From: Deltaproteobacteria bacterium
GTDB taxonomy: Bacteria > Myxococcota_A > UBA796 > UBA9615
Length of the DNA: 64,000 nucleotides
Assembly: GCA_002724675.1 (NCBI GenBank)
Contig: PBPL01000255.1
Coordinates: forward strand, 23,553-87,552
Reading direction: 5' to 3'
This document shows positions 8,813 to 29,400 of the stretch, piece by piece. A program made the position numbers and the translations under genes. How positions within the stretch are numbered: position 1 is the stretch's first letter; each line of letters begins with the position of its first letter. A model generated the notes under the pieces. That model did not search any database. It had not been told where the DNA came from and worked only from the letters and a program-made list of their open reading frames with translations.

Positions 8813-10930
8813 ATGGGCCTTCACCTTGCTGCGCCATGGATGTTGCTCGGCCTGGGCTTGCTGAGCCTGCCGGTGTTGGCACACTTGACTGGCTACCAAG
8901 AGGTCCACACTGTGGACTTCCCCAGCCTGCGTTTTCTACGCGCCTCCCAGCTGAAGGTTCGGCGTCGCACACGGGTAGAGGCCCTGGTTCTGTTGATTCT
9001 TCGCCTTCTGGCCGTCTCCCTGCTCGTGCTCCTCTTTGCAGGCCTGAGTGTCACCTGGACGGGGGCGTCGCTCGCCGGGCTCGATCCGTCACAGACGACC
9101 GTCGTTCTGTTGGATGTGTCCGCTTCCATGCACACGAGGACCGAGGACGGCTCTGTGTACGAGAAGGCGGCAGAGGAGGCCCATCGGCTCTTGGATGGCC
9201 TCGGTCAGGAGACCCTCGCTGCCGTCATCGCGTTTGACGCTGAGGCGCGGGTTCTAGGCCCAGGAATGACCGCATCCAAGGATGCGCTGGGAGCCGCGCT
9301 GGACGAGCTCACGCCGGGGGCGGGCCCGACTCGTCTGGACAACGCACTGCGCCGCGCGGGCGAGCTGTTGCGAGAGGAGGGCATCGCGGGAGCCAATATC
9401 TTCGTCCTCTCGGACGGCACCGCCACCAGCCTTCCGGGACCCACCACCTCGTCCATTTCCCCCGATGTGGTGGTCCACTATCACGACCTGCTGGGCGGTC
9501 GGCCGCAAAACCGGTTTGTGGATGGGGTCGAGACACAGGGTGGAATGAAGCGAGGTGAAGGGCTCCGTGTGGAGGCCCATGTCGTGTCGACTGGAACGGC
9601 GGGAGACGAGGCTGTCCCGCTGACACTCCGGCTCGAAGATGGCCTAGAGGTAGTCGGCGACCTGGCGTTCGAGGGGGGCACTGCGTCGAGGAGCTTCACA
9701 CTTCCCATCCCGCCCTCGGGCCGCCCCAAGGCCCAGCTCATCCTTCCCGAGGATGCTCTGCCCATCGATGATCGCCACGCGTTCACGCTGCAAGGCGAGA
9801 GTCAGCTGGACGTCCTTCTCGTCTCCGGAGATGGCGGCGCCCAGCCGCGGGACGACGAGGTGTACTACCTGGAGAAGGCGCTCCAGCCCGGGCCTGGCTC
9901 CCCGTCCCGGATCCGGCCGCGGGTCGTCACGGCGGAAGAACTGCGTCGCATCGACGGCGGGCGAGGGGACGTGGTGTTCCTCTGCAATGTGGCCGACCCC
10001 CGACCACTGGCGGAGAACTTGATCGACTTCGTCAAGCGGGGTGGCGGCTTGTTTGTCGCGGTGGGAAATCGGGTAGATCCCGACCGCTACAACCAGAGCC
10101 TCGGCGATCTCTTGCCCTCCCGGTTCACAGAACTGAAGACCCGGGGCGCCGGCACCTTCGAGTTGAGCCCCCTTGGGCTAGCGGTGCCGCCCATGGACCG
10201 GGACGAGTTCCGTGTGTTTCGGACGGGCGGGGCCAACGTCTTCTCACGGGTTCGTTTCGGCAAGGTGATCGGGACCGAGCCCAGTGTGCAGAAAGACTCC
10301 GAGGTGCTCCTGCGCTACACCGACGGGCTGCCGGCCTTGCTGGAGCGCCGCGTGGGGGAGGGGAGGGTGCTGCTGTTTACCTCCAGCATCGACGATGACT
10401 GGACGGACCTCCCGCTTCGATCCATCTTCGTATCGCTGATGCACCAGGCAGCTCGAAGCCTCAGCGGCACCCTGGCTATGGACTCGGCCGGTGTGTTCGA
10501 CGTGGGGTCGCGAGTGACACTGCCGGTGCCACCCGACCCCTCGGAGGCGGCATGGGTGCGTGCGCCCGACGGCCGGGATCTCGCCATGGACACGGCCTCC
10601 GCCGACGGCTCCGGGATGGCCCAGTTCGCAGCCACCCACTGGCCGGGGCACTACGCCCTCTACTGGGGAACCGGTGGCGACCGCAGCGCTGGCATCTTGC
10701 GTGCAGTGTTCTCGGTGCGCGTGCCAGCATCGGAGTCCCGCCTGATCCCCGTACAAACCGACGCCCTGCTGCAGTCAGTGCCCGGGCTGGTCTTTCACGG
10801 GGCCGCTGACCAGGGGGGCAAGGACCAGCCTGGGGAGGTCCTTCGGACCGCATCCCTGGCGCCGTGGCTGGTGGTTCTCCTAGGGCTCGTTCTACTCACG
10901 GAAGGGTGGCTGGGAGGGCGGAGGCCATGA
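8813..10930 (+). CDS. BatA-like membrane protein with an N-terminal double-TM 'aerotolerance' domain and a VWA domain
   Basis: N-terminus MGLHLAAPWMLLGLGLLSLPVLAHL is BatA_N-like, with a second TM helix (ALVLLILRLLAVSLLVLLFAGL). The VWA MIDAS start is VVLLDVSASM. Start and stop are coupled to neighbours (8810/8813; ATGA at 10927–10930). Confidence 0.8.
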   Translation: MGLHLAAPWMLLGLGLLSLPVLAHLTGYQEVHTVDFPSLRFLRASQLKVRRRTRVEALVLLILRLLAVSLLVLLFAGLSVTWTGASLAGLDPSQTTVVLLDVSASMHTRTEDGSVYEKAAEEAHRLLDGLGQETLAAVIAFDAEARVLGPGMTASKDALGAALDELTPGAGPTRLDNALRRAGELLREEGIAGANIFVLSDGTATSLPGPTTSSISPDVVVHYHDLLGGRPQNRFVDGVETQGGMKRGEGLRVEAHVVSTGTAGDEAVPLTLRLEDGLEVVGDLAFEGGTASRSFTLPIPPSGRPKAQLILPEDALPIDDRHAFTLQGESQLDVLLVSGDGGAQPRDDEVYYLEKALQPGPGSPSRIRPRVVTAEELRRIDGGRGDVVFLCNVADPRPLAENLIDFVKRGGGLFVAVGNRVDPDRYNQSLGDLLPSRFTELKTRGAGTFELSPLGLAVPPMDRDEFRVFRTGGANVFSRVRFGKVIGTEPSVQKDSEVLLRYTDGLPALLERRVGEGRVLLFTSSIDDDWTDLPLRSIFVSLMHQAARSLSGTLAMDSAGVFDVGSRVTLPVPPDPSEAAWVRAPDGRDLAMDTASADGSGMAQFAATHWPGHYALYWGTGGDRSAGILRAVFSVRVPASESRLIPVQTDALLQSVPGLVFHGAADQGGKDQPGEVLRTASLAPWLVVLLGLVLLTEGWLGGRRP

Positions 10931-11718
10931 CACGCCAGAGCCAATTCTCTCGTCGTGGCGTTCTCCAGGCCCTGGCTGCTGCCACGGGCACCGGAACTCT
11001 AGGCTGGAGCGGAGACCTCCTCGCCCTGGGCGATCGAAAGGTTGGGGTGGCGCGCCTCGACCTGCCCGACCTGCCCGATCCGCGACCTGGCGCGCTGACA
11101 GATCTGCTGCGCGAGGTCAGCCACAATAGCTCCATCAGCGCGGAGGTTCGGCCGGCGCTGGTGGACCCAGGATCGGAGGCGCTGTTCGAACATCCGTTCG
11201 TGGTGCTCTCGGGGGATCGGGGGTTCGAGCCCCTGGGGGATCAAGCGCTCGCCAACTTGCGGCTGTACGTGCGCGAGGGTGGACTGCTCTTTGTGGACGA
11301 CGCCACAGGACTCGAGCGCTCGGCGTTCGACGACAGTGTGCGCCGGGAGCTGTCCCGCCTTTTGCCCGGAACCCCACTTCGGCGCATCGGCCGTGACCAC
11401 GCCATCTACCGCTCGTTCTTTCTGATGCGTGGAGTTGCGGGACGCATGGTCGTTCAGCCCTACCTCGAGGGGCTCTGGCTGGGAGACATCACGCCCGTTC
11501 TGTATTCCCGGAACGATCTGTTGGGGGCCGTCTGGCGGTCCTCAAGTGGCGGCTACGCTCTGGAGGTCGTCCCCGGCGGAGAGCGCCAACGCCTCCAGGC
11601 TCGCCGTATGGCCATCAACCTGGTTTTGTTCGCCGTCACCGGCAACTACAAGCGCGACGTCGTGCACGTAAAGACGCTGCTCAAGCGCATGCGACGGCAG
11701 GGGGGCTACGGAGAGTGA
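10927..11718 (+). CDS. Tat-signal exported protein, DUF4159-like with a possible class-I glutamine-amidotransferase-like fold
   Basis: Twin-arginine motif SRRGVLQALAAATG at the N-terminus, with the start ATG at 10927 overlapping the upstream stop. An internal FVVLSGDRGFEP…LYVREGGLLFVDDATG block resembles GATase1/ThuA-like folds. Assignment is by resemblance. Confidence 0.5.
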   Translation: MTRQSQFSRRGVLQALAAATGTGTLGWSGDLLALGDRKVGVARLDLPDLPDPRPGALTDLLREVSHNSSISAEVRPALVDPGSEALFEHPFVVLSGDRGFEPLGDQALANLRLYVREGGLLFVDDATGLERSAFDDSVRRELSRLLPGTPLRRIGRDHAIYRSFFLMRGVAGRMVVQPYLEGLWLGDITPVLYSRNDLLGAVWRSSSGGYALEVVPGGERQRLQARRMAINLVLFAVTGNYKRDVVHVKTLLKRMRRQGGYGE

Positions 11719-14006
11719 ACGGCAACCTCGTCCAGCAGATCTCCTTCACCTGGGATCCGCTGCTCCCCGACCTGTTGTGGGTGCCTTCGGCGCTCGTGGC
11801 GATGGCGATCCTCGCGCTGTCGTTGCGCGCCTCGGTTGGGTTGCCTGCGTGGAAGCGGGGGTTGCTTGTGGGGCTGAGGGCCCTCGCCTTTGCCTTGCTC
11901 GCGGTCATCCTGGCCGGACCTTCTACGCTGCGCACGGAGGGGAGAGAAGTGCGGGACCCCTATGTCGTGTTGATCGACGGCTCCCGCTCCATGGCGGTCG
12001 AAGATCAGGAGGGGACCCGGTCGGGGGCGGTAGCTCGGTGGCTTGCACGCCACGAGGGCTCGTTTCGGACTCTGGCGGAAGAATACGACCTGCGGTTCTT
12101 CGTGGCGGGAGACGAGCTGGCGCCCCTAGCCCTGGACCAGGCCATTCCTCGAGACGCCCTCAGCGGCTCCATTCCCACAAACGGGCAGGGCACGGACCTG
12201 GGTGCAGCGCTGTTCGGCTTGTCCGATGCGCTCGGCGGAACGAGACCGGCGAGCGTCCTGCTCGTCTCCGACGGCGCCGATCGGGCGGCGCTAGGCCGGG
12301 CCTTTTCAGACTCGGGTGCGGAGGGGGTGGAGCAGCTATCAGCGGGGCTCAAGTTCCCCGTCTCTACCTGGATGGTGGGCGACGAGGACGGGCCCCGAGA
12401 TCTGGCGATCACCAACCTAACCGTGCCGCCCTTTGGCTTCGTGCGCCGCCCGCTCAGCCTCCAGCTGGAGGTGACCTCCCGGGGGCTGCCCCAACGCACG
12501 CACGTGGCTACCCTGCGATCCAATGGAGAGGTGGTCGCGACTACCGAGCTGCACTTCGACGAGGATGGAAGGAGCGCCGTGGACTTCGAGGTGAAGCCCG
12601 ATGAGATGGGCTTTCACACCTACGACGTCAGCATCCCTACACCCGAGGGCGATGCAATCCCGGCCAACAACCAGGCCGAGGTGACAGTCAAGGTGATCCG
12701 GGACCGGACCCGGATCCTCCAGGTCACCTCCCGCCCGTCCTGGGACGTGAAGTTCCTTCGAAGGCTGCTCAAGACCGACCCCAACATCGATCTCGTCTCC
12801 TTCTTCATCCTCCGGAACAGCGAGCGAGGTGGGCAGCTCGCCCGCATGGGAAACCTCTCGCTCATCGCCTTTCCTTACGAGGAGCTGTTCACTCAGGACC
12901 TGGAAGGATTTGATCTCGTCATCTTCCAGAATTTCTGGTTTGGCTCGTTCACCCATTACCCAGACACCGAGTTCGTCCGAAACATCAGGGACTATGTGAG
13001 CAGGGGAGGGGCCTTCTTGATGATCGGTGGGGACAACTCGTTCGGGGAGGCCAACTATGGATCCTCGCCCCTCGCAGAGGTGATGCCCACTCAGATCCCA
13101 GATGCGGCATCCATCACCCAGCCGTTTCGGGCGGTGCTGAGCGAGGCCGGGCAGCGCCACCCCGTGACTCGACTGGTCCGCGAGGGCGATCGCAACCTGG
13201 GCCGCTGGGAAGATCTGCCGCTACTCCACGGCTGGAATCCCCTGGGAGCTCCCCAGGAGGGTGGGGTCGTGCTCGCCACAGCTGGTGCAGGCGGCCCGCC
13301 CATCGCCGCAGTGCGCACGGCGGGCAAGGGCCGCACAATGGCCTTCGCCACCGACACCACTTGGCGCTGGGCCATGGCCGGCACCGAAGGACCTGGAGCA
13401 GGTCAGGACCACGCTCTGTTCTGGCGCAACGCCATCCGTTGGCTGATCAAGGACGCGGAGGAAAAACAGGTGCAGTTGGTCTTGGATCGGGAGAACTACC
13501 AACTGGGCGATCCCATGCAGGTGATGGTTCGCGTCCTCCGGGAGGACTACTCCCCGTGGGCCAACGCTCAGGTGGTGGGTCGCGTTGCGCTCCTAGGCGG
13601 CGGCGATGCGACCCCTATCGAAGGAGTCACCGATGCTGATGGTCAATTGACAGTCCTGCTTCCGTCGACCGCCCAGGGCACCGTTGTGGTGGAGGTCGAC
13701 GTTCCGGACGTTCCTGCTCCCTTTGGTCACGCGGAGGCGCGGGCCTCCATCAGCGACCGACAGGGAGAGTTTCTGGACGCTCGAGTCCGCCCGGGGCTCC
13801 TCAAGGCCCTGTCTGAGGCCACCGGCGGCAAGGTGCTGGGGGGGCGGGATCCCGACCCGCGACTCGCGGCTACTGGCGGCGGAAACTCGGTGCTGGCGGT
13901 CGATCGAAAAGTAGAGTCGCTCTGGAATCGATGGTGGTTGCTGGTGGTCTTGGTGTTGCCGCTCGGCGCCGAGTGGGCGACGCGGAGACGGATGGGACTG
14001 CCCTGA
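11715..14006 (+). CDS. Membrane protein with a VWA domain and a C-terminal GATase1/ThuA-like domain (BatB/BatA-related)
   Basis: N-terminal TM helices. VWA MIDAS motif VVLIDGSRSMAVED. A C-terminal block FQNFWFGSFTHYPDTEF…SRGGAFLMIGGDNSFGEANY. A final TM helix (WWLLVVLVLPLGA). The start overlaps the upstream stop. Confidence 0.6.
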   Translation: MNGNLVQQISFTWDPLLPDLLWVPSALVAMAILALSLRASVGLPAWKRGLLVGLRALAFALLAVILAGPSTLRTEGREVRDPYVVLIDGSRSMAVEDQEGTRSGAVARWLARHEGSFRTLAEEYDLRFFVAGDELAPLALDQAIPRDALSGSIPTNGQGTDLGAALFGLSDALGGTRPASVLLVSDGADRAALGRAFSDSGAEGVEQLSAGLKFPVSTWMVGDEDGPRDLAITNLTVPPFGFVRRPLSLQLEVTSRGLPQRTHVATLRSNGEVVATTELHFDEDGRSAVDFEVKPDEMGFHTYDVSIPTPEGDAIPANNQAEVTVKVIRDRTRILQVTSRPSWDVKFLRRLLKTDPNIDLVSFFILRNSERGGQLARMGNLSLIAFPYEELFTQDLEGFDLVIFQNFWFGSFTHYPDTEFVRNIRDYVSRGGAFLMIGGDNSFGEANYGSSPLAEVMPTQIPDAASITQPFRAVLSEAGQRHPVTRLVREGDRNLGRWEDLPLLHGWNPLGAPQEGGVVLATAGAGGPPIAAVRTAGKGRTMAFATDTTWRWAMAGTEGPGAGQDHALFWRNAIRWLIKDAEEKQVQLVLDRENYQLGDPMQVMVRVLREDYSPWANAQVVGRVALLGGGDATPIEGVTDADGQLTVLLPSTAQGTVVVEVDVPDVPAPFGHAEARASISDRQGEFLDARVRPGLLKALSEATGGKVLGGRDPDPRLAATGGGNSVLAVDRKVESLWNRWWLLVVLVLPLGAEWATRRRMGLP

Positions 14007-15177: not shown

Positions 15178-16376
15178 TTCACTGCTCGAAGCGCGTCGCC
15201 GCCATCCCGTCATCCGCCACCTTGGCCATCAAGGCTCGGGCTCGCGAGCTCAGCGAAGCCGGCCACGACATTATCGATCTCTCTGCGGGCGAACCCGACG
15301 GCAGCCCACCACCGGAAGCGGGTGCAGCAGGCATCGAGGCGATTGAAGGGGGCTCGCACCGCTACACACCGGTGCCCGGCATGCCCCAGCTAAGATCTGC
15401 CATCGCGGCCATGTACCGAGAACGACACGGTCTCGACATCGGGCCCGAGCGGGTCATGGTGACCATGGGGGGGAAGCAGGCGCTCTACAACCTAGCCCTG
15501 GCGCTGTTCAACCCTGGGGACGAGGTGATCCTGTTCGCCCCGCACTGGGTGTCCTACATGCCCCAACTCCAACTCGCTGAGGCCAAGGGAGTGGTCATCC
15601 CGACCCGACCCGAAGATGGGTTCCAGCCGGACCTGGACGCTGCTCGGGCGGCTATCACAGACCGCACCCGCGCCATCATCATCAACAGCCCGGGGAACCC
15701 CACCGGGACCATCATCGAGCGAGAACGTCTGGAAGCGCTGGCCCAGCTCGCCGAGGAACGCGACTTGGTTGTGATCTCGGACGAGATCTACGACGGCATC
15801 ACCTACGACGGGGCCAGCAGTTGCTGCTTCCCCACGCTCCGAGAGGGGCTGTCGGAGCGAACCATCATCATCAATGCCGTGTCCAAGACCTACGCCATGA
15901 CTGGCTGGCGGGTGGGCTGGATGGTGGCACCACCCGAAGTGGTTGGCGCCTGCTGCAAGATCCAGAGTCACAGCACGTCGGGTGTCTGCGCGGTCAACCA
16001 GCGAGCGGCGATCGCAGCCATCAAGGCTCCCCGCAGCTTCCTGGATCCCATCCTCAGCGCTCTCACACGCCGGCGCGCTCTGCTCACCGAGGGCCTGGAG
16101 CAGACCCCTGGCATCGAGGTGGGACCCCCACCATTGGGCGCCTTCTACCTGTTCCCCCGGGTGGATGGCTTGTTCGGCCGCACGACCCCCGATGGAACCT
16201 TGCTGACCTCGTCGCTGGAGGTGGCTGACTTCTTCATCAATCAAGCGGGAGTGGCCGTCGTTCCGGGCGAAGGGTTCGGTGAGCCGCGGTGCGTGCGCAT
16301 CTCGTACGCCACCAGCTACGAGCGCCTGTCCAAGGGGCTCGGGCGCCTCCAGGACGCGATCGCCGAGCTCAACTAG
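15174..16376 (+). CDS. PLP-dependent class I aminotransferase, aspartate-aminotransferase-like
   Basis: PLP-lysine region NAVSKTYAMTGWRVGWMVAP and the typical length of 400 aa. ATGA overlap with coaD. Confidence 0.8.
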   Translation: MIHCSKRVAAIPSSATLAIKARARELSEAGHDIIDLSAGEPDGSPPPEAGAAGIEAIEGGSHRYTPVPGMPQLRSAIAAMYRERHGLDIGPERVMVTMGGKQALYNLALALFNPGDEVILFAPHWVSYMPQLQLAEAKGVVIPTRPEDGFQPDLDAARAAITDRTRAIIINSPGNPTGTIIERERLEALAQLAEERDLVVISDEIYDGITYDGASSCCFPTLREGLSERTIIINAVSKTYAMTGWRVGWMVAPPEVVGACCKIQSHSTSGVCAVNQRAAIAAIKAPRSFLDPILSALTRRRALLTEGLEQTPGIEVGPPPLGAFYLFPRVDGLFGRTTPDGTLLTSSLEVADFFINQAGVAVVPGEGFGEPRCVRISYATSYERLSKGLGRLQDAIAELN

Positions 16377-16386
16377 AGAGCGACTT

Positions 16387-16866
16387 TCAGGCAGCAGGGC
16401 CGGGGCGCAGCCCAATGGCACGAAAGGCCTTGTAGTCCTGCAAGATGGTCCCGTGATCGAAGGCCATGTCGTCGGGCAACTCGTCCACACTGAAGGCTTC
16501 CACCTCGGCGGCATCGGAGCCGGCTCGAGGCCCGGCGCCCCCCACGGGGCGAGCGATGTACACCACAGTCATGGTGTGGTGCCGAGGATCTCGATCCGGG
16601 TGAGAGTAGACCGCTAAGAATTCCTTCAGCTCGACCCGTAGACCGGTCTCTTCGAGCACCTCACGACGCGCGGCATCTTCGGAGGACTCGCCGTAATCGA
16701 TAAAGCCACCCGGAAGCGCCCAGCCCAGAGGCTCATTCTTCCGTCGCACCAGCACGATCAGCCCGCGGCCTAGCTCGACGATCACGTCGACTGTGGGGTA
16801 GGGATTCCTAGGCTTGGAGAGCCCTCCTGGGTCCGGACTGTCGGCCTCGGAGGACCCGTCAGTCAT
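16387..16866 (-). CDS. Nudix hydrolase
   Basis: Nudix box GGFIDYGESSEDAARREVLEETGL (GX5EX7REUXEEXGU pattern). Confidence 0.8.
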   Translation of the reverse strand: MTDGSSEADSPDPGGLSKPRNPYPTVDVIVELGRGLIVLVRRKNEPLGWALPGGFIDYGESSEDAARREVLEETGLRVELKEFLAVYSHPDRDPRHHTMTVVYIARPVGGAGPRAGSDAAEVEAFSVDELPDDMAFDHGTILQDYKAFRAIGLRPGPAA

Positions 16867-17959
16867 GAACTATGGGGCCATGCTGTCGCCGGGGTCGTTC
16901 CCGAGTGAGCTGTGCGCCAGCCGACCGGATCTGCTTGACGGTCCACCCCTCCTGAATCGCCACGTCCGCGTCGACTCCGGCCTTCAGAATCTCTTCGGCC
17001 TTGAAGATGGATAGTCGCCCCGTCTCGATGGCATCTCGCAGGGCGTCATCCTGGGCCACCCTCAGGTAGCGCTGCAGTGTGCGCTTCCGACGGCCGGTGA
17101 TCCGCTCAATCTCTCGCAGGGCCACTTGATCCTCGTGGAGGCGAAGGGTCGACTGGAGCCGCTGCAGTGGTGTGTTCTCGTGAGCCGGACTGCGGGGATT
17201 CTCCATAATCTTCAGCCTGCGGCAGTCGTCTTCGCTGACGCCGCGCCACACGATGGCAGGCACCTTGCGCATCTGAAGCTGCCTGGCCGCCGTGAGTCGT
17301 CGGAATCCGCGAATGACTTGAAAGTAACCGTCCTCGCGTTCCCGCAGAACCAGCGGCTGCCGGACACCCTCTACCTTGAGACTGCGGAGCAGCGACTCGC
17401 TTGGCGCCGTGGTTCCGTCAGCAAAGGTGCGATCCTTGGGGTCGATGCGACCGATGGAGATCTGCTCCACGAGATCCTGCTCTGCGCTGTCCCGATCGAA
17501 GCTCTCGCCGGAACCCGAGGGCGTGCTCACCAGCTCCAGCAAGCTTCGCTGACCCAGGCCTTCGGCCAGAACCGGCCGCTCAGGCATTACCTTGTGCTCT
17601 GGCTCGAGCACGAGCACGCCATCCTCCAACTCCCAGAGCATCCGGGTGCTCTGCTCCATCTGAAAGGGGAATGTGCGGGGCAGGACGATCCGATCCTGCG
17701 AGCCCAGACGAAGTGAGATCCCAGACCGCACCGCCGCCAGATACGGGTGCTCCTGATCCGGAAAGAGCTTTTGAACCTGCTCCGCCATCTCGCAGTGCCT
17801 CTCCCAAGCTCCCGCGGGGAAGACATAGAGCTTCTCGCGTACCGCCGAGACCACGATTGGATCGCCCCGCTCGATGCCGTGCGCATGGAGAAATTCAGCC
17901 GGAATACTCAGTCGTCGTTCCTTAGCGATGTACTTCACTCGGCGTGTCAGCTTGCCCAT
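16859..17959 (-). CDS. Chimeric DNA-binding protein: N-terminal MraZ/AbrB (SpoVT) swapped-hairpin-like domain plus a ParB/Srx N-terminal domain and HTH
   Basis: N-terminus KERRLSIPAEFLHAHGIERGDPIVV resembles the MraZ/AbrB DNA-binding motif (GRLSIP…). Residues about 195–225 YFQVIRGFRRLTAARQLQMRKVPAIVW align with the ParB box II / arginine patch (ELIAGERRWRAAKLAGLKEIPAIV). An HTH-like segment ITGRRKRTLQRYLRV follows. The stop overlaps the Nudix start by 8 nt. Confidence 0.55.
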   Translation of the reverse strand: MGKLTRRVKYIAKERRLSIPAEFLHAHGIERGDPIVVSAVREKLYVFPAGAWERHCEMAEQVQKLFPDQEHPYLAAVRSGISLRLGSQDRIVLPRTFPFQMEQSTRMLWELEDGVLVLEPEHKVMPERPVLAEGLGQRSLLELVSTPSGSGESFDRDSAEQDLVEQISIGRIDPKDRTFADGTTAPSESLLRSLKVEGVRQPLVLREREDGYFQVIRGFRRLTAARQLQMRKVPAIVWRGVSEDDCRRLKIMENPRSPAHENTPLQRLQSTLRLHEDQVALREIERITGRRKRTLQRYLRVAQDDALRDAIETGRLSIFKAEEILKAGVDADVAIQEGWTVKQIRSAGAQLTRERPRRQHGPIVHD

Positions 17960-17985
17960 CGACTCGTCCTCGCTCCCAGGTCGCC

Positions 17986-17999
17986 AGCCCCATGGGGCT
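17986..17999. promoter_or_regulatory. 14 bp perfect palindrome AGCCCCATGGGGCT, 27–40 bp upstream of the ParB/MraZ-like gene start. Candidate operator.
   Basis: Read directly: a86…t99 are self-complementary. It lies in the 5' region of the minus-strand gene starting at 17959. Confidence 0.3.
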
Positions 18000-18164
18000 C
18001 TTGGTGGCGACGTCCCTGTGGACAGTTCCGCTTCTTCAGGGCCTCTCGGCCTACCTACGACGCTATCGGCGCATGGTAAAAGCTGTCAACCCTCACCACT
18101 CAAGACGAGCATTGGTTTTGATCAAACGGGGCCAATGGTAAGGATGTGTTAAGTAATTAAGCTA

Positions 18165-18205
18165 TTGAAGTTACAGAGAATACACTGATAATACATACAT
18201 GTATG
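18165..18205 (+). promoter_or_regulatory. Sigma70-like promoter (TTGAAG-N17-ATAATA) inside an AT-rich island, immediately followed by the 12 bp perfect palindrome CATACATGTATG (18194–18205)
   Basis: -35 TTGAAG at 18165–18170, a 17 nt spacer, -10 ATAATA at 18188–18193. The palindrome starts 1 nt after the -10. The region from about 18100 to 18230 is AT-rich, unlike the rest of the window. Confidence 0.35.
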
Positions 18206-18459
18206 AAGCTGCATGCCAATTGATGGTAAAGACATTGGAACGGTTTCGTGGCCTGAGCGGCGCTGTCCACCGCAGTCTGCGGCTCAGCGGTGTGGAAAAC
18301 CTGTGGATAAAACTGCCCAGGTGGGGCCTTGAGCTTCAGTTACCCACAGACCGCTGGGGCAGAGTCTCCCGGGTGGCGTGGGTTGGCTTGGCCGGGAACC
18401 TGCGCCGGTGCTGGCGCCGGGCCTCGAACTAGCTGGGACGGGGACGCCGCCAACGGACA

Positions 18460-18984
18460 GTGGCTGCTATCATTCGAGCCGCCCCAAAGAAGAAGTGGAG
18501 CCCCCCAGTGGCTGGAGCAGAACAGAGCATTTATGTAGGTGTCCGACCCGAGACTCTCTTCTCGGTCATTACGGACTATGAGAGTTATCCGCAGTTCCTG
18601 TCGGACATGGAGGACGCGAAGGTCGTCAGCCGGGACGGATCGGTGGTGGAAGTGGAGTTCACGCTCAACCTCATCAAGCGGGTTCGATACACGCTTCGAC
18701 TCACTGAAGAAGCCCCCAACAAGGTGTCCTGGAGCCTGGTCGAAGGAATGTTCAAGCGCAACGATGGGAGCTGGCGGCTGGTGGAGCAGCCCGATGGACG
18801 CACCAAGGCGACGTACCGGATCGAGCTCGCCGTTGGCGTCTTCTTGCCCGGCGCCATTGTGCATCGGCTCGTGGGTCAAACCCTGCCGGCCACGCTCGAA
18901 GCCTTTCGGGACAGGGCCGAGGCCCAGGCCATCGAGAAGGGGCCGGGCTTCGTTGATGAGGCTGGCTCCGAGGACAGCCCTTGA
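18460..18984 (+). CDS. SRPBCC-family (polyketide cyclase/dehydrase / RatA-like START fold) protein
   Basis: YESYPQFLSDMEDAKVVSRDGSVVEVEFTLNLIKRVRYTLRLTEE… is typical of the Polyketide_cyc2/SRPBCC family. The start codon is uncertain. Confidence 0.55.
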   Translation: MAAIIRAAPKKKWSPPVAGAEQSIYVGVRPETLFSVITDYESYPQFLSDMEDAKVVSRDGSVVEVEFTLNLIKRVRYTLRLTEEAPNKVSWSLVEGMFKRNDGSWRLVEQPDGRTKATYRIELAVGVFLPGAIVHRLVGQTLPATLEAFRDRAEAQAIEKGPGFVDEAGSEDSP

Positions 18985-20060
18985 AGCAGGAGCGTAGCCA
19001 GACAGCCCTCCTGCTGGTGGCGCTGGTCGTGGTGTCCCTGAGCGGCTTCGCCTTCTGGCGCACATCCCAGGAGCCGGGCAGGGAGCAGCTGTCATCGTCG
19101 CCTCCCCCGCAAGCACAGCCAGAAGTGGTGGAGGCCTCGAGCGAGCCGAGCCTTGCGGACTTGGTGGGCCAGCTTCGCCAGCGGTCCGAGGCCCTCGCAG
19201 GCCTGCCCGAGGGTCCCCAGCGAGAGGAAGTGGTGCGCAAGCTGCTCACCGAGTCCAAAGAAGTGGGCAACCATGCCATCGCCGCCCATAGAGCCGACCT
19301 CACAGCTCGCATCGGCCAGATGCTGATCGATGTGAACGAGACCAAGTTCGCCGAAGCCTTCCTTCAGCGTTCGGTGGGGCTACTCAAGCCTGCTGAGCAC
19401 GGCAAGGACGCCATGTACCCGCTAGCGCAGGTGCGACGGGCGAGCGGGCGTCCACTGGAGGCCGCGTCCCTGTACGAGCGCGCCATCGACATCGAGCCCA
19501 CCATGCCCGCTGAGTTCGTCGGGCTGTCGGACCTCTATCTGGCAGCCGGGCGCATGGGACCAGCGCGCGCCGCCGTGACGCGAGGCCTGGCACGACACAA
19601 GGAGTCCGTCGACCTGGCCGTGCAGGGGGCCAAGGTGGCGCTGTTGGACGGCAAGGCCCCAGAGGCTGCCACCAGCCTTCGGACGATCCTGCAGAGCCAG
19701 AGGAACCACGTGGGCGCCCAGCTGGTGTTCGTGGAAGCCCTCCTGGCGACCGGCGCACTGGCGGAGGCTTCTCGGGAGGCAGAGGGCCTACGCGCGGACT
19801 TCCCCGAGGACCCCTGGGGCTGGATCTTCGGGGGTGCAGTGCTGCGGGCTACGGGTGAGCTGGAAGAGGGCTCCACCATGCTGGCGCGGGCCACAGAGCT
19901 GGCTGGAGATTGTCCCTGCACCCACGAGGAGCGTCTGACGATCGCCTGGGCATCCGAGCTGTCGAAGGCTCCGCAGGTGGCACCTCGAGCACGGACTGAG
20001 ATCCCGAACGCTGCGCCCACCCCGCCAAAGACGTCCCCGTCGACTGGTGCCCCCGGCTAG
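18981..20060 (+). CDS. Membrane-anchored or secreted TPR-repeat protein
   Basis: N-terminal hydrophobic segment ALLLVALVVVSLSGFAFW. TPR-like helical repeats (…AASLYERAIDIEPTMPAEFVGLSDLYLAAGRMGPARAAV…). TTG start overlapping the upstream stop. Confidence 0.5.
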   Translation: MKQERSQTALLLVALVVVSLSGFAFWRTSQEPGREQLSSSPPPQAQPEVVEASSEPSLADLVGQLRQRSEALAGLPEGPQREEVVRKLLTESKEVGNHAIAAHRADLTARIGQMLIDVNETKFAEAFLQRSVGLLKPAEHGKDAMYPLAQVRRASGRPLEAASLYERAIDIEPTMPAEFVGLSDLYLAAGRMGPARAAVTRGLARHKESVDLAVQGAKVALLDGKAPEAATSLRTILQSQRNHVGAQLVFVEALLATGALAEASREAEGLRADFPEDPWGWIFGGAVLRATGELEEGSTMLARATELAGDCPCTHEERLTIAWASELSKAPQVAPRARTEIPNAAPTPPKTSPSTGAPG

Positions 20061-23574: not shown

Positions 23575-25083
23575 ATGGGCAGGCTGCGCGAGCGCCTTCG
23601 ACGCCAGCTGGGCGATCCCGCAAAGCTCCGACCGGGGAGGGGGGCGATGGATCCGTCGATCGACCCCCCAGCAGGAACTGCGGCGCAAGCTGCTCAAGTC
23701 CAGGCCATGGAACAGCCCGCCCGCGCGGCGTGGGTCGGGGTGCCACCGCAAGACGGCTGCTTGCCACCCATCCACAGAGCGGTGCGGCAAGAGAGCCGCG
23801 GAGGCTTCGTGTACGGCGAGGTGCAGCTGCCCCATGCCTGGCAACACGGCGGCCTCCCCCTGGCTGCCGTTGCTCAACTGAGCGGGGACGCTGCTGTCTT
23901 GTTGTCGGGGGACATTGCACTGGCCGACTTCGACCCCAGCCGGGCGCTGTTCTTTGACCTGGAGACGACGGGACTACCGGGACGCTGGGACGATCGGAGT
24001 CACCAGTACCGGGCAGCCCATGGTCGGCGCAACGCCACCGGCTCGGTGCTCGCTTTCTTGGTGGGCACGGTCCGAATTGGTCCGGATGGTGGCGTCACAC
24101 TGCGCCAATACCTGCTCCGGCAGCAGCCCGACGAGCCCGCTGTGCTCGATGCCATTCAGGCCGCACTGGCCGAGGTGGACTTCCTCGTTTCGTTCAACGG
24201 CAAGTCGTTCGATCGCAACATCCTGGCCGATCGCTTCGCCCGAAACCGCATGGACTCGTCCCGGGTCTTGGCGCTGCCCCACCTGGATCTACTGCACCCC
24301 TCCCGCAGACTCTACTCCCAGGTACTGTCCCGCTGTTCCCTGGGCACGCTGGAGACCCATGTGCTGGGCCTGGATCGCCCAGACGGCGAGGTCAGCGGGG
24401 CAGAGGTTCCCATGCTGTGGGACCGCTACCTGGCCACTGGCAAGCCCGGGATCCTGGGTCCGGTTCTCGACCACAACACACTAGACCTCCTGAGTCTGGT
24501 CACCTTGGGCGGTCACCTGGCCGACTGTGTCCGACGCCCAGAAACGACGCTGCCCGAGCCGCAGGCCCTGGCCCAAGCGGCGCGACTCATGCTGCAGCGA
24601 GGCGACGAGCAGCGGGGCGAGCGGCTCCTCAGACGACTCCTGAGCCAGCGGGCGCTTCAGCAAGTCGTCGAGTCCCAGGGTGGCGACCTCCAGGAGAGGC
24701 CTGACACCCAGCCATTCGACCCGGTGATCTACGGCGCGTCGTGGGTGCTCGCCGAGCATCTGCGGCGACAGGCTCGGCACGACGAGGCCCTCCCTGTCTT
24801 GCTCTCCATGTGCGCCGCAGCAGGCCCGTTCGACCTTCGCCCCTGGCGGGCAGCCGCCATCGCCTTGGAGCGACGCCTGGGCCAACCGGGTGAGGCGCTG
24901 GCGCTCGTCGACCGAGCCCTCGCTCAGTGCCCCATCCCCGACAGTTCGAGCGAAGCCCATCAGGACGCATCCGCCCCAGACCACGCCGAGTTGATGCGGC
25001 GCAAGATCCGCCTCAAAAAGCGCTTAGAGACCCTGCCTTCGGCAAAGAAAGCTACGATCGCACCAGCTCCGACGGGCCGCTGA
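23575..25083 (+). CDS. RNase H-like DEDD 3'-5' exonuclease with a C-terminal TPR-like region (MrfB/YprB-like)
   Basis: Exo I motif LFFDLETTGLPG. The C-terminal helical-repeat region is Leu/Ala/Arg-rich. It lies immediately downstream of the helicase. The ATG at 23575 is preferred over the upstream start at 23464, which would overlap the helicase by 100 nt. Confidence 0.6.
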   Translation: MGRLRERLRRQLGDPAKLRPGRGAMDPSIDPPAGTAAQAAQVQAMEQPARAAWVGVPPQDGCLPPIHRAVRQESRGGFVYGEVQLPHAWQHGGLPLAAVAQLSGDAAVLLSGDIALADFDPSRALFFDLETTGLPGRWDDRSHQYRAAHGRRNATGSVLAFLVGTVRIGPDGGVTLRQYLLRQQPDEPAVLDAIQAALAEVDFLVSFNGKSFDRNILADRFARNRMDSSRVLALPHLDLLHPSRRLYSQVLSRCSLGTLETHVLGLDRPDGEVSGAEVPMLWDRYLATGKPGILGPVLDHNTLDLLSLVTLGGHLADCVRRPETTLPEPQALAQAARLMLQRGDEQRGERLLRRLLSQRALQQVVESQGGDLQERPDTQPFDPVIYGASWVLAEHLRRQARHDEALPVLLSMCAAAGPFDLRPWRAAAIALERRLGQPGEALALVDRALAQCPIPDSSSEAHQDASAPDHAELMRRKIRLKKRLETLPSAKKATIAPAPTGR

Positions 25084-25118
25084 CTGGTAAACAGGGGCCT
25101 GCTGAGGCGACACCCCCG

Positions 25119-26399
25119 ATGCCCAAAGTCCTCCCAATCGCGCTGTGTCTTCTGGGGATCTCGCTCCTCGGCTCGGGCTGTCCGGACTGGCGGGACGTAG
25201 CCCGTAATGCGGATGGGGATGGGGATGGGTCGTTCTATCCCGATGACTGCGCGCCAACGAATCCGGAGATCCACCCGGCGGCCTTTGATCCCATCGGTGA
25301 CGGAGTGGACCAGAATTGCGACGGCACCGATGGCGTGGACCGGGATCGTGACGGCTGGGGAGGGGGCTCGGGCGCTGATTGCAACGATGGCGATCCCAGT
25401 GTCCATCCCGACGCCGAGGACCCCGTGGGCGACAACCGGGACCAGAACTGCGATGGAGTGGACGGTGTGGCTGGGGACGTCGTGGGGGACGACGACGTGG
25501 GCGACGACGACACGACCCACAGCGGCGACGACGACGACGATGATGACGACACCACCAGCCCCCCCCATGGCGATGACGACACCGCTGGTGGCGCCGATGA
25601 TGACGACGCTACCGGCCCAGCCAACGATGATGACGACGACGATGTTGGTCCGGATCCGACCCCGTGCCCCTGCGACTTTGGTCAGCTCTGCGTAGAGGGC
25701 TTGTGCCTGTACTCGGACACGTTTGCCATTGGGCTGTTGGAGGGCAGCAACAACCTGGCCACCGACTACCCCTCCACCAACGCGTGTTTCTGGCGGTCCG
25801 AGTACCTCAGCTCCATCACCGCTGTGCAGGGCGACTGCGTGGCGCGATTTCTGCCGGGCAGCCAGCCGGTCGTTCAGTACGTGGCGTCCAGCGCTGGCGA
25901 GGTCACCGTCACCGGAGGCATGACCGATCCCATCGTCTTTGATGCCAGCGGCAGCGCCGAGTGCCTCGACGCCAACGTCACCGATGGCTTGGAGGACCTG
26001 TTCGAGTCGGGCCAGACTCTGACGTTTGTGGGTTCTGGGGGGGCAGACTTCCCCGAGTTCACAGCCAGCCTGCTGGCACCAGCGCCCATCGAAGGGAGCG
26101 CGACGTCGATTGCGCCAGGCAGCGCGGTGGAGATGTCGTGGGACAGCGGTGACTCGGACTATGTGGAGATCACCGTAGCCACCGAGAGCATCACCGGAGG
26201 CGATCGGCATGCCATCGTGTGCCGCACGGGGGACGTGGGCACCTTCCTGGTACCGCCCTCCATGACGATCACTCTCCCCACCGACAATACGGGCTACACC
26301 GTGTCCTTCTCCCGCAATCGGGTCGCGCACCTGGAGTACGAAGACCTGGCCCGAGTGATCGATGTGGTGGTGCAGACCAGCTGGGTGCAGATGCCGTAA
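25119..26399 (+). CDS. Lipoprotein with MopE-type putative metal-binding Cys motifs and a poly-Asp acidic tract
   Basis: Lipobox LLGSGC. Repeats DQNCDGTDGVDRDRDGW and CNDGDPSVHPDAEDPVGDNRDQNCDGVDG. An acidic tract DDDVGDDDTTHSGDDDDDDDDTTSPPHGDDDTAGGADDDDATGPANDDDDDD. Confidence 0.6.
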   Translation: MPKVLPIALCLLGISLLGSGCPDWRDVARNADGDGDGSFYPDDCAPTNPEIHPAAFDPIGDGVDQNCDGTDGVDRDRDGWGGGSGADCNDGDPSVHPDAEDPVGDNRDQNCDGVDGVAGDVVGDDDVGDDDTTHSGDDDDDDDDTTSPPHGDDDTAGGADDDDATGPANDDDDDDVGPDPTPCPCDFGQLCVEGLCLYSDTFAIGLLEGSNNLATDYPSTNACFWRSEYLSSITAVQGDCVARFLPGSQPVVQYVASSAGEVTVTGGMTDPIVFDASGSAECLDANVTDGLEDLFESGQTLTFVGSGGADFPEFTASLLAPAPIEGSATSIAPGSAVEMSWDSGDSDYVEITVATESITGGDRHAIVCRTGDVGTFLVPPSMTITLPTDNTGYTVSFSRNRVAHLEYEDLARVIDVVVQTSWVQMP

Positions 26400-26418: not shown

Positions 26419-29400
26419 TCAGCGGCTGGCAGTCACGGACCAGCTGCCGTCTACGCAGTCGCTGCAGTCCCCCGTGAACTGGATCGAGACGTCGCCAGCC
26501 AGTGCATCGGCACCGGTGAAGCTGCCCGCCAGGGACCAGGTCGCGGTGCAGGCCCCATGGTTCACCAGCCTGGTGCGCTCCACGAGAAAGACATCTGGGC
26601 TGACAAAGCCACCTTCGAGAGTGCCGGGGTGGGCGGTGTGCGATGCCATGGTCAGTTCATAAGCACCCGCGATGACCGCAGGGTCGATGGCGGCATAGGT
26701 GGGTCGGTACGTCGCGTGCAGCTGCTCGACCACCACCCCGACGCTGCCCGAGTCACAGGTGTAGTTCACGAAGGGCGACAGCCTCCAGAGGCCTGCATAG
26801 GCAGGGGGCTCGAAGGGCGAATGGACCAGGTAGGTCCTGCCCGGGTTGCTGTCGGGGAGGTCGCTGTCGTCCTGGTCAGCACCAATCAGCATGGCAGACA
26901 GGCCGTCGCCATTGACGTCGCCGGCCGTCGCGACGGAGGTGCCACTGCGGTCATAGTGGCCTTCCCCGACAAATGCGGCCCCGGCTTCGCTGAGCGAAAA
27001 GGTCCCTCCAGCAAGCAGGTCGCTGCCATAGAACAGGTAGGTCTTGCCGGTCCTGCTGCCCACGTCGTCGTTACCGTTTGCCCCGATGACGACGTCATCC
27101 AATCCGTCACCATCCACGTCGCCCGCGCTCGACACCGAGGTGCCGCTGTAGTCGAACATATTCTCGCCGAGCAGAACGACATCTGCCGAGAGCAGGTCGT
27201 AGTCCGCCGGGAACCCGGTGGTGCGCCCAAAGACCAGGTAGGTCGCTCCACCGCGGTGGTGTGCGGTGGCATCTTCCTCGGCGCCAATGAGTATGTCCGA
27301 GAGACCATCGCCGTTCACGTCGCCGGCCGTCGCCAAGGAATTGCCTGCCGTGGCACCCTGCTGGCCAATTAGGGCGACATCAGCCTCAGACAGAGACATG
27401 CCCCCGCCCAGCCTGGGCATGCTGGTTGCCCCCAGGATGAGGTAGGCCTTGCCGTATTCATCGTCCACATAGTCGGCGGGAGCGCCGATGAGGACATCGG
27501 CCAGCCCGTCGCCGTCGACGTCGCCGGCACCGTCGACAGCCCATCCGGACTCGCTGTACTCATCGCTCCCTGAGATGACCAGGTCCGCATCAGAGGCGTC
27601 CAGAGGAGCGCTGGGCCCGGCGCTCAGCCAGGCCATGACAGAGCTTCCCAGAAACAGGTAGGACCTCCCGGCCTGGTCTTCATCGGCATCACTGCCGGGG
27701 GCCCCGATGAGTAGATCGGCCAACCCGTCGCCGTCGACATCGCCGGCTCCGGCCACAGAGTTGCCAAAGTAGTCGTAGAGTTCCTCACCCAGGATGGTGA
27801 CCGCGGCTTCACTGAGCGGAAACACCCCACCGGCACCAAGCGCACTTCCAAAAAGCAGGTATGCCGACCCGGCGGTGGCAGGAAACGCGTCGTCGTCACC
27901 CGGCGCACCAATCAGAACATCCGAGAGCCCGTCGCCATCGACATCCCCAGCACTTGACACGGAATAGCCGACCTGCCCGTAGGCAACATCATCTCCGATG
28001 AAAATGGCATGGGCGTCACCGAGGTCTTCACTCCACGCAGCGCCGTCCTCTCTACCCAGCACCAGGTAGGCTTTGCCGCCCTCGATCTGATACTCGGAAT
28101 GGTCAGGGGAGCCGATGAGCAGATCGCCCAGGCCATCGCCGTTGACGTCGCCCGCAGCCACTGCGGATTGCCCACTGTCGTCCAGCTCGACCTCTCCGAC
28201 GAACAGGGGCTCGATGAGCGCCAGGGACGTGCCGAGAATGCCGTCGCAGTTGATGTCGCCGTCGACGTTCGGAGTCTCCCAACCCAGGTTGCTGCCCGGG
28301 TAGACGTCTGGGTCGACGTCGTTGCAGTCCTGCTCACTGCCTGGAGCGTTCTGCGCGTAGCCATCGCCGTCCGCGTCCACCCCTTGGGAGCCGTCGCAGT
28401 TGGCGTCCAACTCATCCCAGGGATCGAAGACGCTGAGGTTGATGAGCGGATCGTCGTCGTCGCAGTCCTCACCACCACTGTCCCCCGATGCCCAACCGTC
28501 CCCATCGCTGTCCACGCCATCGATACCATCGCAGTTGGAGTCAATCTCCTCCACGTCGATCAGATCGAGGCTGTCTGGGTTCGGGTGGACCGAAGGGTCG
28601 TCGGGATCACAGTCCCAGTCCGGGTGGGTGGGAGTCGCGTTGTCGGGCCAGCCATCGCCGTCGTCGTCAATGCCGTCAATGCCGTCGCAGTTCTGGTCGA
28701 TGGTGTCTCCGTGCAGGTCGGCCGCGCCCGGGTAGGTATAGAGGCCCAGGGTCCCGTCGTCGCAGTCCAGTGCGCAGCTGGACACCCCGTCCCCATCAAC
28801 ATCTAGGGTCTCGACCGTCCCATCGCTGTCGTCGCAATCCGAACACGACGGGTCGCCGTCGCCGTCGAGATCCTGCTCCTGCCCCGCGTCCGCCCAGGTG
28901 GTCGGGTCGCAGTCGGTGTCCAGGCCGTCGCAGAGCTCAGCGGCATCGGGGCGGACATGGAAGTTGGCGTCGTCGCAGTCCCCATCACAGGCCATGACCT
29001 CGTCGCTGTCGCCATCCAACTCTTGATCAGGAACCAGCCCGTCGCAGTCGTTGTCCAGCCCGTCGCACAGCTCGGGGAAGTTGGCCCCCATGGTGGCACT
29101 CTCATCGTTGCAGTCACCCTCGCAGGGCATGTGACCGTCCTCGTCGGCATCGGTCTCGTACGAGCCAGGCCCACCGTCGCAGTCGTTGTCCTGGCCGTCG
29201 CAGGCCTCGTTACCACCCAGGAAGTTGGCGGAGTCGGCGTCGTCGCAGTCCCCCGCGCACCCCATCATGCCGTCGCCATCGCCGTCCTCTTCGCCGTCCT
29301 CGGCATCGGCCAGCCCGTTGCAGTCGTTGTCTTCGCCGTCGCACAGCTCGGCCGCCCCCGGGGTATTGCTGGCATCGGAATCGTCGCAGTCGACACAGCT

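Follow-up and report, generated by a model that had tools for sequence, protein, structure and literature searches.

The ParB-CTPase fold constitutes a third class of nucleotide switch, one that has been re-used repeatedly through domain fusion. Proteins with this fold are often orphans joined to lineage-specific domains, with partners that include HNH, UPF0020, DUF3850, DUF4417, methyltransferases, CBS, ASCH and MT-A70 (PMC12704722). The closest described proteins are the canonical chromosomal ParB of ParABS systems (Spo0J), and the regulators KorB of plasmid RK2, VirB of Shigella, Noc of Bacillus and PadC of Myxococcus. None of these four regulators carries a domain of MraZ/AbrB type, whereas such a domain heads the protein described here. 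It is encoded on the reverse strand (16859-17959) of a 64,000-nucleotide stretch of contig PBPL01000255.1, hereafter the window, from an uncultured Deltaproteobacteria bacterium, as a 366-amino acid open reading frame (ORF) in the ORF list of the window. This hybrid gene joins an MraZ-like head to a ParB N-terminal domain and a helix-turn-helix (HTH) domain. The chimeric architecture is real, and with a probability of roughly 0.55 its product is an orphan member of the ParB family, probably a DNA-binding transcription regulator or nucleoid-associated protein gated by a nucleoside triphosphate (NTP), rather than a partition protein. It follows the same principle as the fusions reported by Kaljevic et al. 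(2025, PNAS; PMC12704722), some of them on mobile elements or phages, in which an orphan ParB-CTPase fold is combined with a lineage-specific domain. Its kind is known, but this partner and topology are undescribed: the ParB fold is paired with an uncatalogued partner, a putative DNA-binding and oligomerisation domain of MraZ/AbrB type, at the opposite end from the usual dimerisation domain.

The domain organisation is supported by both profiles and structure prediction. The structure that AlphaFold2 predicted from the family alignment, with a mean predicted local distance difference test score (pLDDT) of 79.8, contained three confident bodies, at residues 4-120, approximately 160-255, and 264-353, along with a disordered separating stretch at residues 123-151. 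On the reverse strand, the MraZ-like domain, with two tandem swapped-hairpin repeats, spans residues 4-121 (17597-17950), followed by a disordered linker with pLDDT below 50 (residues 122-160; 17480-17596), the ParB N-terminal domain, which has the ParB-CTPase fold (residues 161-256; 17192-17479), and a DNA-binding HTH domain of ParB/KorB type (residues 264-353; 16901-17170), which contains the nearly invariant ITGRRKRTLQRYLRVA...GRLSIFKAEEILKAG. A basic tail of 13 residues ends the chain after the HTH, and no family of ParB C-terminal dimerisation domain was matched in the protein. The Pfam family ParB_N (PF02195) matched residues 166-254 at 45 bits, against a cut-off of 26.3 (E 1.1e-11), a match precomputed in all 75 full-length homologues, and the N domain qualifies as a ParB/sulfiredoxin fold. 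When a profile of 37 family members was compared with solved structures, the best match was M. xanthus ParB (7o0n/7bnk, approximately 1e-11) over residues 177-326, covering both the N domain and the HTH, followed by Noc (2e-10) and other ParBs. Both halves are also recognised by automatic names from JGI, which read 'ParB-like ... Spo0J / antitoxin component of MazEF' and '... / RsmH inhibitor MraZ'. The ParB box II, or arginine patch, and the HTH following it, which had been proposed in an initial annotation made from the letters of the window, both stand, and every sequence feature listed there was found where it had been placed.

In canonical ParB, the glutamine of box I and the asparagine of box III are needed for hydrolysis, and the arginines of the GxxR motif for nucleotide binding. 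The hybrid family has kept the latter. Within the box II phosphate motif (G218-F-R-R221; 17297-17308, part of a wider stretch from G218 to R226 at 17282-17308, reverse strand), G218 and R221 were invariant in 37 homologues, down to 46% identity, and a distant clade of relatives retains G-x-(R/K)-R. The glycine and proline of the C-motif loop (G198-V-R-Q-P202, or G-x-x-x-P) were also invariant. The box I-like motif, IDxxDRTF at residues 172-179, mostly retains its arginine (R177) across the family, and the position of its glutamine is K175 in the alignment to M. xanthus ParB, being an arginine, a lysine or another residue elsewhere in the family. Box III, 'ENLQR' in ParB, aligns with M-E253-N254-P-R (the box III-like motif, residues 252-254), in which the glutamate is mostly retained, and the asparagine, present in the window protein as N254, is not conserved in the family. 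As the GxxR motif has been kept and the glutamine and asparagine are not conserved, binding may be retained and hydrolysis may be weak or absent, which leaves the CTP binding and hydrolysis proposed in the initial annotation as candidate activities. The lack of conserved equivalents of the catalytic glutamine and asparagine sets the hybrid apart from the orphan regulators KorB, VirB, Noc and PadC.

Canonical chromosomal ParB is the best sequence relative of the hybrid N domain and HTH, and the order of an N-peptide-like motif, N domain and HTH is the same in both. The hybrid differs in lacking parA, parS and the C-terminal domain, in scoring below the threshold of TIGR00180, and in the addition of the MraZ-like domain. 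KorB and Noc retain the C-terminal dimerisation domain, which the hybrid is without, its head being N-terminal to the ParB body instead; at this end, Noc has a membrane helix. The hybrid could nevertheless be imagined as the lineage's own chromosome-partition ParB, or a Noc-like paralogue, with ParA or another partner encoded elsewhere and a peptide in the linker as the partner-binding motif. That the nearest relatives are chromosomal ParB and Noc speaks for this, with TIGR04285 and TIGR00180 both matching at 1e-10. So does the peptide itself, GQxSLL(D/E)L(M/V) at residues 136-144 (17528-17554, reverse strand), which has an invariant glutamine (Q137) in the family alignment. It lies approximately 35 residues before box I, the position we take to be that of the ParA-activating peptide of ParB, LG(R/K)GLxALL, such that GQxSLLDLM would have a glutamine in place of the arginine or lysine. 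Yet this substitution is invariant, the box I glutamine and box III asparagine are not conserved, the C-terminal dimerisation domain is missing, and the scores were 40.6 bits against a cut-off of 58.45 for TIGR00180 (parB_part), and 41.7 against 315 for TIGR04285 (Noc). Nor was any partner found, in keeping with the annotated absence of a partition locus: there was no ParA-type Walker A motif (KGGxGK[ST]) in the six frames of the window, no parA or dnaA among its annotated genes, no parA among the called genes of related contigs, and no match to parS (TGTTNCACGTGAAACA) in the window at up to three mismatches. A partition function is thus quite improbable. The linker peptide may be a vestige of a ParA-activating peptide that has lost the catalytic arginine or lysine, or may be a binding motif for a partner. 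The plasmid ParB used for the peptide comparison (L038) is itself without the canonical peptide.

Two hairpin motifs in the head, ERRLSxPA (residues 14-21) and LGSQDRxVLP (residues 85-94), were invariant across the family, and hence the head resembles the tandem swapped hairpin of MraZ, rather than a single AbrB half-barrel; two tandem AbrB-like swapped-hairpin repeats in one chain, which define the MraZ fold, are present. The MraZ family PF02381 was matched by 11 of 20 family members at E≤1 (best 2.7e-5), and matches to MazE/SpoVT-AbrB, just under the cut-off, were found in 15 of the 20. MraZ (UPF0040) differs from the hybrid in being a stand-alone protein of 150 amino acids, a repressor that heads the dcw cell-division cluster upstream of rsmH, whereas the hybrid gene fuses this type of domain to a ParB body and lies beside neither rsmH nor ftsL. 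The hybrid head has not kept the aspartate of the DxxxR motif of MraZ. One relative of 202 amino acids (P0076, from a 2-kb contig in ENA) has the MraZ-like domain joined straight to the HTH, with the ParB N domain deleted, and is either a true minimal form or an artefact of assembly or gene calling.

Under the preferred reading, that of an orphan NTP-gated regulator, these parts would operate as follows. Firstly, the MraZ-like domain would supply self-association in place of the lost ParB C-terminal domain, as suggested by MraZ forming ring oligomers, and AbrB-type domains being obligate dimers. Secondly, the same domain would add a second, arginine-rich DNA-binding surface (R6, R7, K9, R15, R16 and R90), with the HTH recognising a specific DNA site. 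Thirdly, an NTP at the GxxR pocket would drive self-engagement of the N domains, altering how DNA is held, as in KorB, VirB and Noc, with its hydrolysis expected to be slow or absent because a lysine or arginine replaces the box I glutamine, and the box III asparagine is not conserved. Fourthly, transcription would start from a conserved TTGACA-N18-TAnnnT promoter set amid clustered DnaA-box-like repeats and an island rich in AT, a position from which expression is probably coupled to DnaA, autoregulated, or both. If the protein binds NTP, it would offer a way to ask whether engagement of the N domains can control DNA binding in a protein that has no C-terminal gate.

The control region that this mechanism invokes occupies 17960-18459, immediately upstream of the gene, and is visible as conserved blocks in alignments across orthologous loci. 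A sigma-70-like promoter on the reverse strand (-35 TTGACA, 18084-18089; -10 TAGCGT, 18060-18065; N18 spacer) has a conserved (A/T)TTACCA element in its spacer. Beyond it lies an AT-rich island (18100-18240; 33-36% GC, against 64% for the window), with a palindrome, CATACATGTATG, at 18194-18205. The poorest 100-nt stretch in GC anywhere in the 64 kb lies in this island, and elsewhere no such stretch goes below 48%. The DnaA-box-like repeats flank this stretch. On the reverse strand, TTATCCACA (18302-18310) and TTTTCCACA (18291-18299) are in tandem with 11-bp spacing, and TTACCCACA (18340-18348, forward strand) is inverted; these three boxes, each within one mismatch of TTATCCACA, fall within 58 bp, and a fourth copy, CTGTCCACA (18017-18025, reverse strand), is in the 5' untranslated region (5'UTR). 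Across the window and 26 orthologous loci, the box motif had a density of 3.54 per kb within 450 nt upstream of the gene and of 0.026 per kb in the remainder of the loci, a 136-fold enrichment. A weight matrix from 81 instances gave TTATCCACAG, with 66 of these in the orientation of the gene, and 18 of the 27 upstream regions carried two or more boxes that depart from the universal DnaA-box consensus at no more than one position.

Operators of MraZ consist of direct repeats that contain GTGG and recur approximately every 10 bp, and the boxes might conceivably be such an operator, bound by the hybrid protein itself. This is less likely. The repeats are instead read as DnaA boxes because they are identical to the 9-mer DnaA-box consensus, their spacing varies (9-13 bp), and the motif was not found near either the phage-borne copy of the gene or the distant clade. 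Candidate roles for the cluster are control of the gene by DnaA, autoregulation through an operator, and titration of DnaA or an origin-like function. There is precedent for DnaA boxes controlling a parAB operon (PMC13438810), and for DnaA-box clusters outside oriC (PMC2533591).

Another interpretation would make these upstream 500 bp an oriC, or a DnaA-titrating or -reactivating locus, on which the hybrid protein would act, either as a ParB-like factor close to the origin or as a regulator of the cell cycle. The box cluster, its enrichment, the multiple boxes in 18 of 27 regions, and their position around the most AT-rich 100 nt of the window would all fit such an element, as would the classical proximity of ParB genes to origins. 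However, the 64 kb yielded no dnaA, dnaN or parA, and 35 of the 41 genes are on the forward strand, on both sides of the site, such that at least ten on one side would be head-on to a fork leaving it. The GC skew at third codon positions of forward-strand genes was also unchanged across the site, albeit in a test of low power (p = 0.44), no array resembling DnaA-trios adjoins the boxes, and five of the 27 loci have none. Hence an oriC at 17960-18459 is unlikely, given the gene orientation, the lack of a skew switch, and the absence of dnaA and dnaN from the window; the broader idea of a replication element seems improbable to us.

A related idea is that the gene encodes a new cell-cycle or nucleoid regulator wired to the replication initiator through the DnaA-box and AT-rich element, with the NTP switch gating an MraZ-type DNA-binding oligomer, and the copy captured by a phage of the same hosts (P0074) perhaps manipulating this control. 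The element might then be an origin-like or DnaA-titrating site at which the hybrid protein acts. The clamp would be tethered at its N terminus instead of its C terminus, an arrangement not known from any studied ParB. We consider this version unlikely as a whole. The conserved region suggests that, in this uncultured marine lineage, the initiation of replication and a ParB-like regulator are linked.

Several observations weigh against the regulator reading itself. Firstly, NTP binding is proposed from the conservation of motifs, and ParB-CTPase folds may bind CTP, ATP or GTP, with neither sequence nor AlphaFold3 predicting which (PMC12704722). Secondly, oligomerisation through the head is proposed by analogy. 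Thirdly, the head fell short of the relevant profile cut-offs, with 13.7-17 bits for PF02381 (cut-off 23), 12.4 for NF001476 (cut-off 162), and 19.5-23.7 for PF04014 (MazE_antitoxin, SpoVT/AbrB; cut-off 24.7). Moreover, a profile of the head, searched against 1.84 billion representatives, retrieved no canonical MraZ, and homology to MraZ is therefore argued from the predicted fold. Searching solved structures with a profile of the head alone likewise gave no significant match, and an hhalign comparison with an approximate sequence of E. coli MraZ was insignificant. Thus the MraZ/AbrB-like head of the initial annotation holds with respect to its two invariant hairpin motifs and predicted fold, but not with respect to the Pfam and NCBIfam scores. 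Fourthly, DnaA-like boxes are wanting in five of the 27 upstream regions, and the upstream palindromes differ between sub-clades while the HTH is nearly invariant; for both reasons, autoregulation is no more than a candidate.

The palindromes merit separate description. Those of 16 bp were considered as the operator of the HTH but could not be assigned this role, since the deep clade has GCGCC-N6-GGCGC, the window clade has CATAC-N2/6-GTATG, and neither is shared despite the invariant HTH. In four loci (L014, L016, L019 and L021), a palindrome CTGTAAAC(N)ATTTACAG, approximately 170 to 330 nt before the start codon, takes the place of the distal DnaA-like boxes of most loci, which suggests that, within the lineage, the regulatory signals reaching the gene from upstream have been replaced over time. 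The 5'UTR also holds a GC-rich inverted repeat, immediately ahead of the ribosome-binding site, with the sequence AGCCCCATGGGGCT in the window (17985-17998) and GCGCC-N6-GGCGC in the deep clade. Its stem differs between clades with pairing kept, and it may act either as a hairpin in the RNA or as an operator. An Rfam scan of 15500-19500 found no RNA family.

Downstream of the hybrid gene on the same strand is a gene for a Nudix hydrolase of 159 amino acids (16387-16866; PF00293, 92 bits against a cut-off of 21.1, E 4e-26). The Nudix box, GX5EX7REUXEEXGU, is intact (GFIDYGESSEDAARREVLEETGL), and the annotated 8-nt overlap with the hybrid gene (ATGACTGA) was confirmed, along with the family assignment. 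The sequence arrangement suggests that the two are translationally coupled in this genome, in which they are likely co-transcribed. The best solved relative is an Aquifex protein (2yyh, 5.7e-30), and the NCBIfam matches, to ADP-ribose pyrophosphatase and MutT types, fell far under their cut-offs; on this basis the enzyme is a generic, small MutT/ADP-ribose-pyrophosphatase-like one.

This arrangement had invited the proposal that the Nudix hydrolase is a functional partner, with the ParB-like switch and the enzyme forming a two-gene module in which, for instance, the latter degrades or resets the switch nucleotide (CTP, cytidine diphosphate or a derivative). The overlap suggestive of coupling, the intact Nudix box, and the same order and orientation in seven species-level loci are in accord with a module. 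A lack of conservation between loci, named beforehand as the result that would speak against the partnership, is nevertheless what was found. In a tblastn survey of synteny over 31 loci, combined with a neighbour-joining tree and counted on 27 species-level loci, Nudix directly followed the hybrid gene in only seven of the 27: the window, L004/L017/L018 and L014/L016/L019. These formed three patches of a single, upper sub-clade, interleaved with Nudix-less relatives. No Nudix gene was found directly downstream in approximately 16 of the 27, including five to six loci of the same sub-clade (among them L008, L009, L011, L012 and L015) and all ten readable loci of the sister, lower clade, nor was one found beside the phage copy or the distant clade. 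Relaxed tblastn searches (E≤10) of the Nudix-less loci detected no remnants, and in the other Nudix-positive loci the genes do not overlap, being separated by 19-60 nt. The proposal of a two-gene system, taken as a conserved unit, is thus refuted, and, the enzyme being generic, a nucleotide-resetting module is very unlikely. The Nudix gene is an accessory passenger of one sub-clade, outside the mechanism, and its overlap with the hybrid gene reflects chance in the local order of genes and does not mark a system. In the same survey, tblastn detected Nudix in both L004 and L005 (the same protein, P0048), whereas the gene call in L004 was an ORF of 125 amino acids on the opposite strand. Precomputed gene calls therefore under-report Nudix.

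The hybrid gene belongs to a rare family. It numbers approximately 80 of 5.8 billion clusters, every one of them from metagenome-assembled genomes (MAGs) of uncultured, Myxococcota-like bacteria, most of which are marine. A word-indexed search of the 5.8 billion clusters identified the 75 full-length homologues (46-90% identity, 355-386 amino acids), all of metagenome or MAG origin, and a scan of 185,579 species-representative genomes identified 26 loci, all in MAGs. The labels of orthologous contigs include 'Myxococcota bacterium' and 'Deltaproteobacteria bacterium', with 'Rickettsiales' labels being implausible at 64% GC; together with the gene content of the window, the labels point to an uncultured, Myxococcota-like host lineage. 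An exhaustive hidden Markov model search with the head alone, against the 1.84 billion representatives, gave 14 matches at E≤1e-3, among them P0080, P0081, P0085 and P0086, which share the MraZ-like, GxxR and HTH layout. A follow-up search added P0089 as the fifth member of this distant clade of approximately five clusters, whose members are approximately 37-51% identical to one another. Its loci (L032-L037; P0081, P0086 and relatives) matched the head profile with E values of 1e-8 to 1e-4. The neighbourhood differs from that of the window gene but is conserved within the clade: CcmH lies upstream of the gene, which is followed by a Ser/Thr-kinase-FGE-sulfatase gene and a methyltransferase.

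A full-length copy at 46% identity, P0074 (L001:6001-7071), lies in a phage or prophage region. Noted together with L001:7840-8712 and 10788-12260, it is approximately 800 nt from a gene for a major head protein (phrog_2522, 6.7e-53) and near a head maturation protease, and has neither the Nudix gene nor DnaA-like boxes. Such a phage-borne copy suggests a function worth hijacking. Among phage and plasmid records, none covered the MraZ-like head, matches being confined to the ParB part (residues 123 onwards), and BFVD structures gave partial matches, none of which spanned the head. A literature search yielded no description of an MraZ-like/ParB fusion, and MraZ, AbrB, SpoVT, MazE and Nudix go unmentioned in the text and the available supplements of the survey of ParB-CTPase fusions (PMC12704722). 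The architecture thus lies outside the systems described in the literature searched, as had been proposed.

The window is ordinary chromosome. On one side of the hybrid gene are a MoxR-DUF58-BatA-VWA block, RsmD, CoaD and an aspartate aminotransferase (AspAT), and on the other SRPBCC, TPR, an alpha/beta hydrolase and a DEAD/MZB helicase; further along are TilS, FtsH, FolP, CdaA, PdxJ, TsaE, Ser/Thr kinases and MopE/FG-GAP proteins. The GC content at third codon positions of the hybrid gene is 0.74, like that of the neighbouring genes, and local composition equals the 64% GC background. When the window's neighbours were searched by tblastn, orthologues of the hybrid gene were fixed between SRPBCC(-TPR) and AspAT-CoaD-RsmD-GATase1-like in more than 20 species, this housekeeping neighbourhood recurring throughout the 27 orthologous loci, with an acyltransferase and an epimerase inserted upstream in many of these genomes. 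Vertical inheritance of the hybrid gene at one fixed chromosomal position is thereby shown.

This setting also bears on a toxin-antitoxin or anti-phage module, in which an AbrB/MazE-like head would be the antitoxin, and either Nudix or a ParB nuclease domain the effector. The weak Pfam match of the N-terminal hairpin to the MazE antitoxin is of this type, the Nudix protein matches a candidate defence family (PDC-S07, 1.2e-8), and a phage carries a homologue of the hybrid. Nevertheless, a fixed housekeeping position and background composition are not those of such a module, the adjoining genes include no toxin, Nudix does not consistently accompany the hybrid gene, and PADLOC returned no meaningful match for the hybrid protein, making a defence role scarcely credible.

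Elsewhere in the window, a protein of 1486 amino acids (26419-30879, reverse strand) has 11 MopE-type putative metal-binding repeats and six FG-GAP repeats, and is accompanied by a smaller MopE-repeat protein at 24927-26399. Both are typical of Myxococcota-like genomes.

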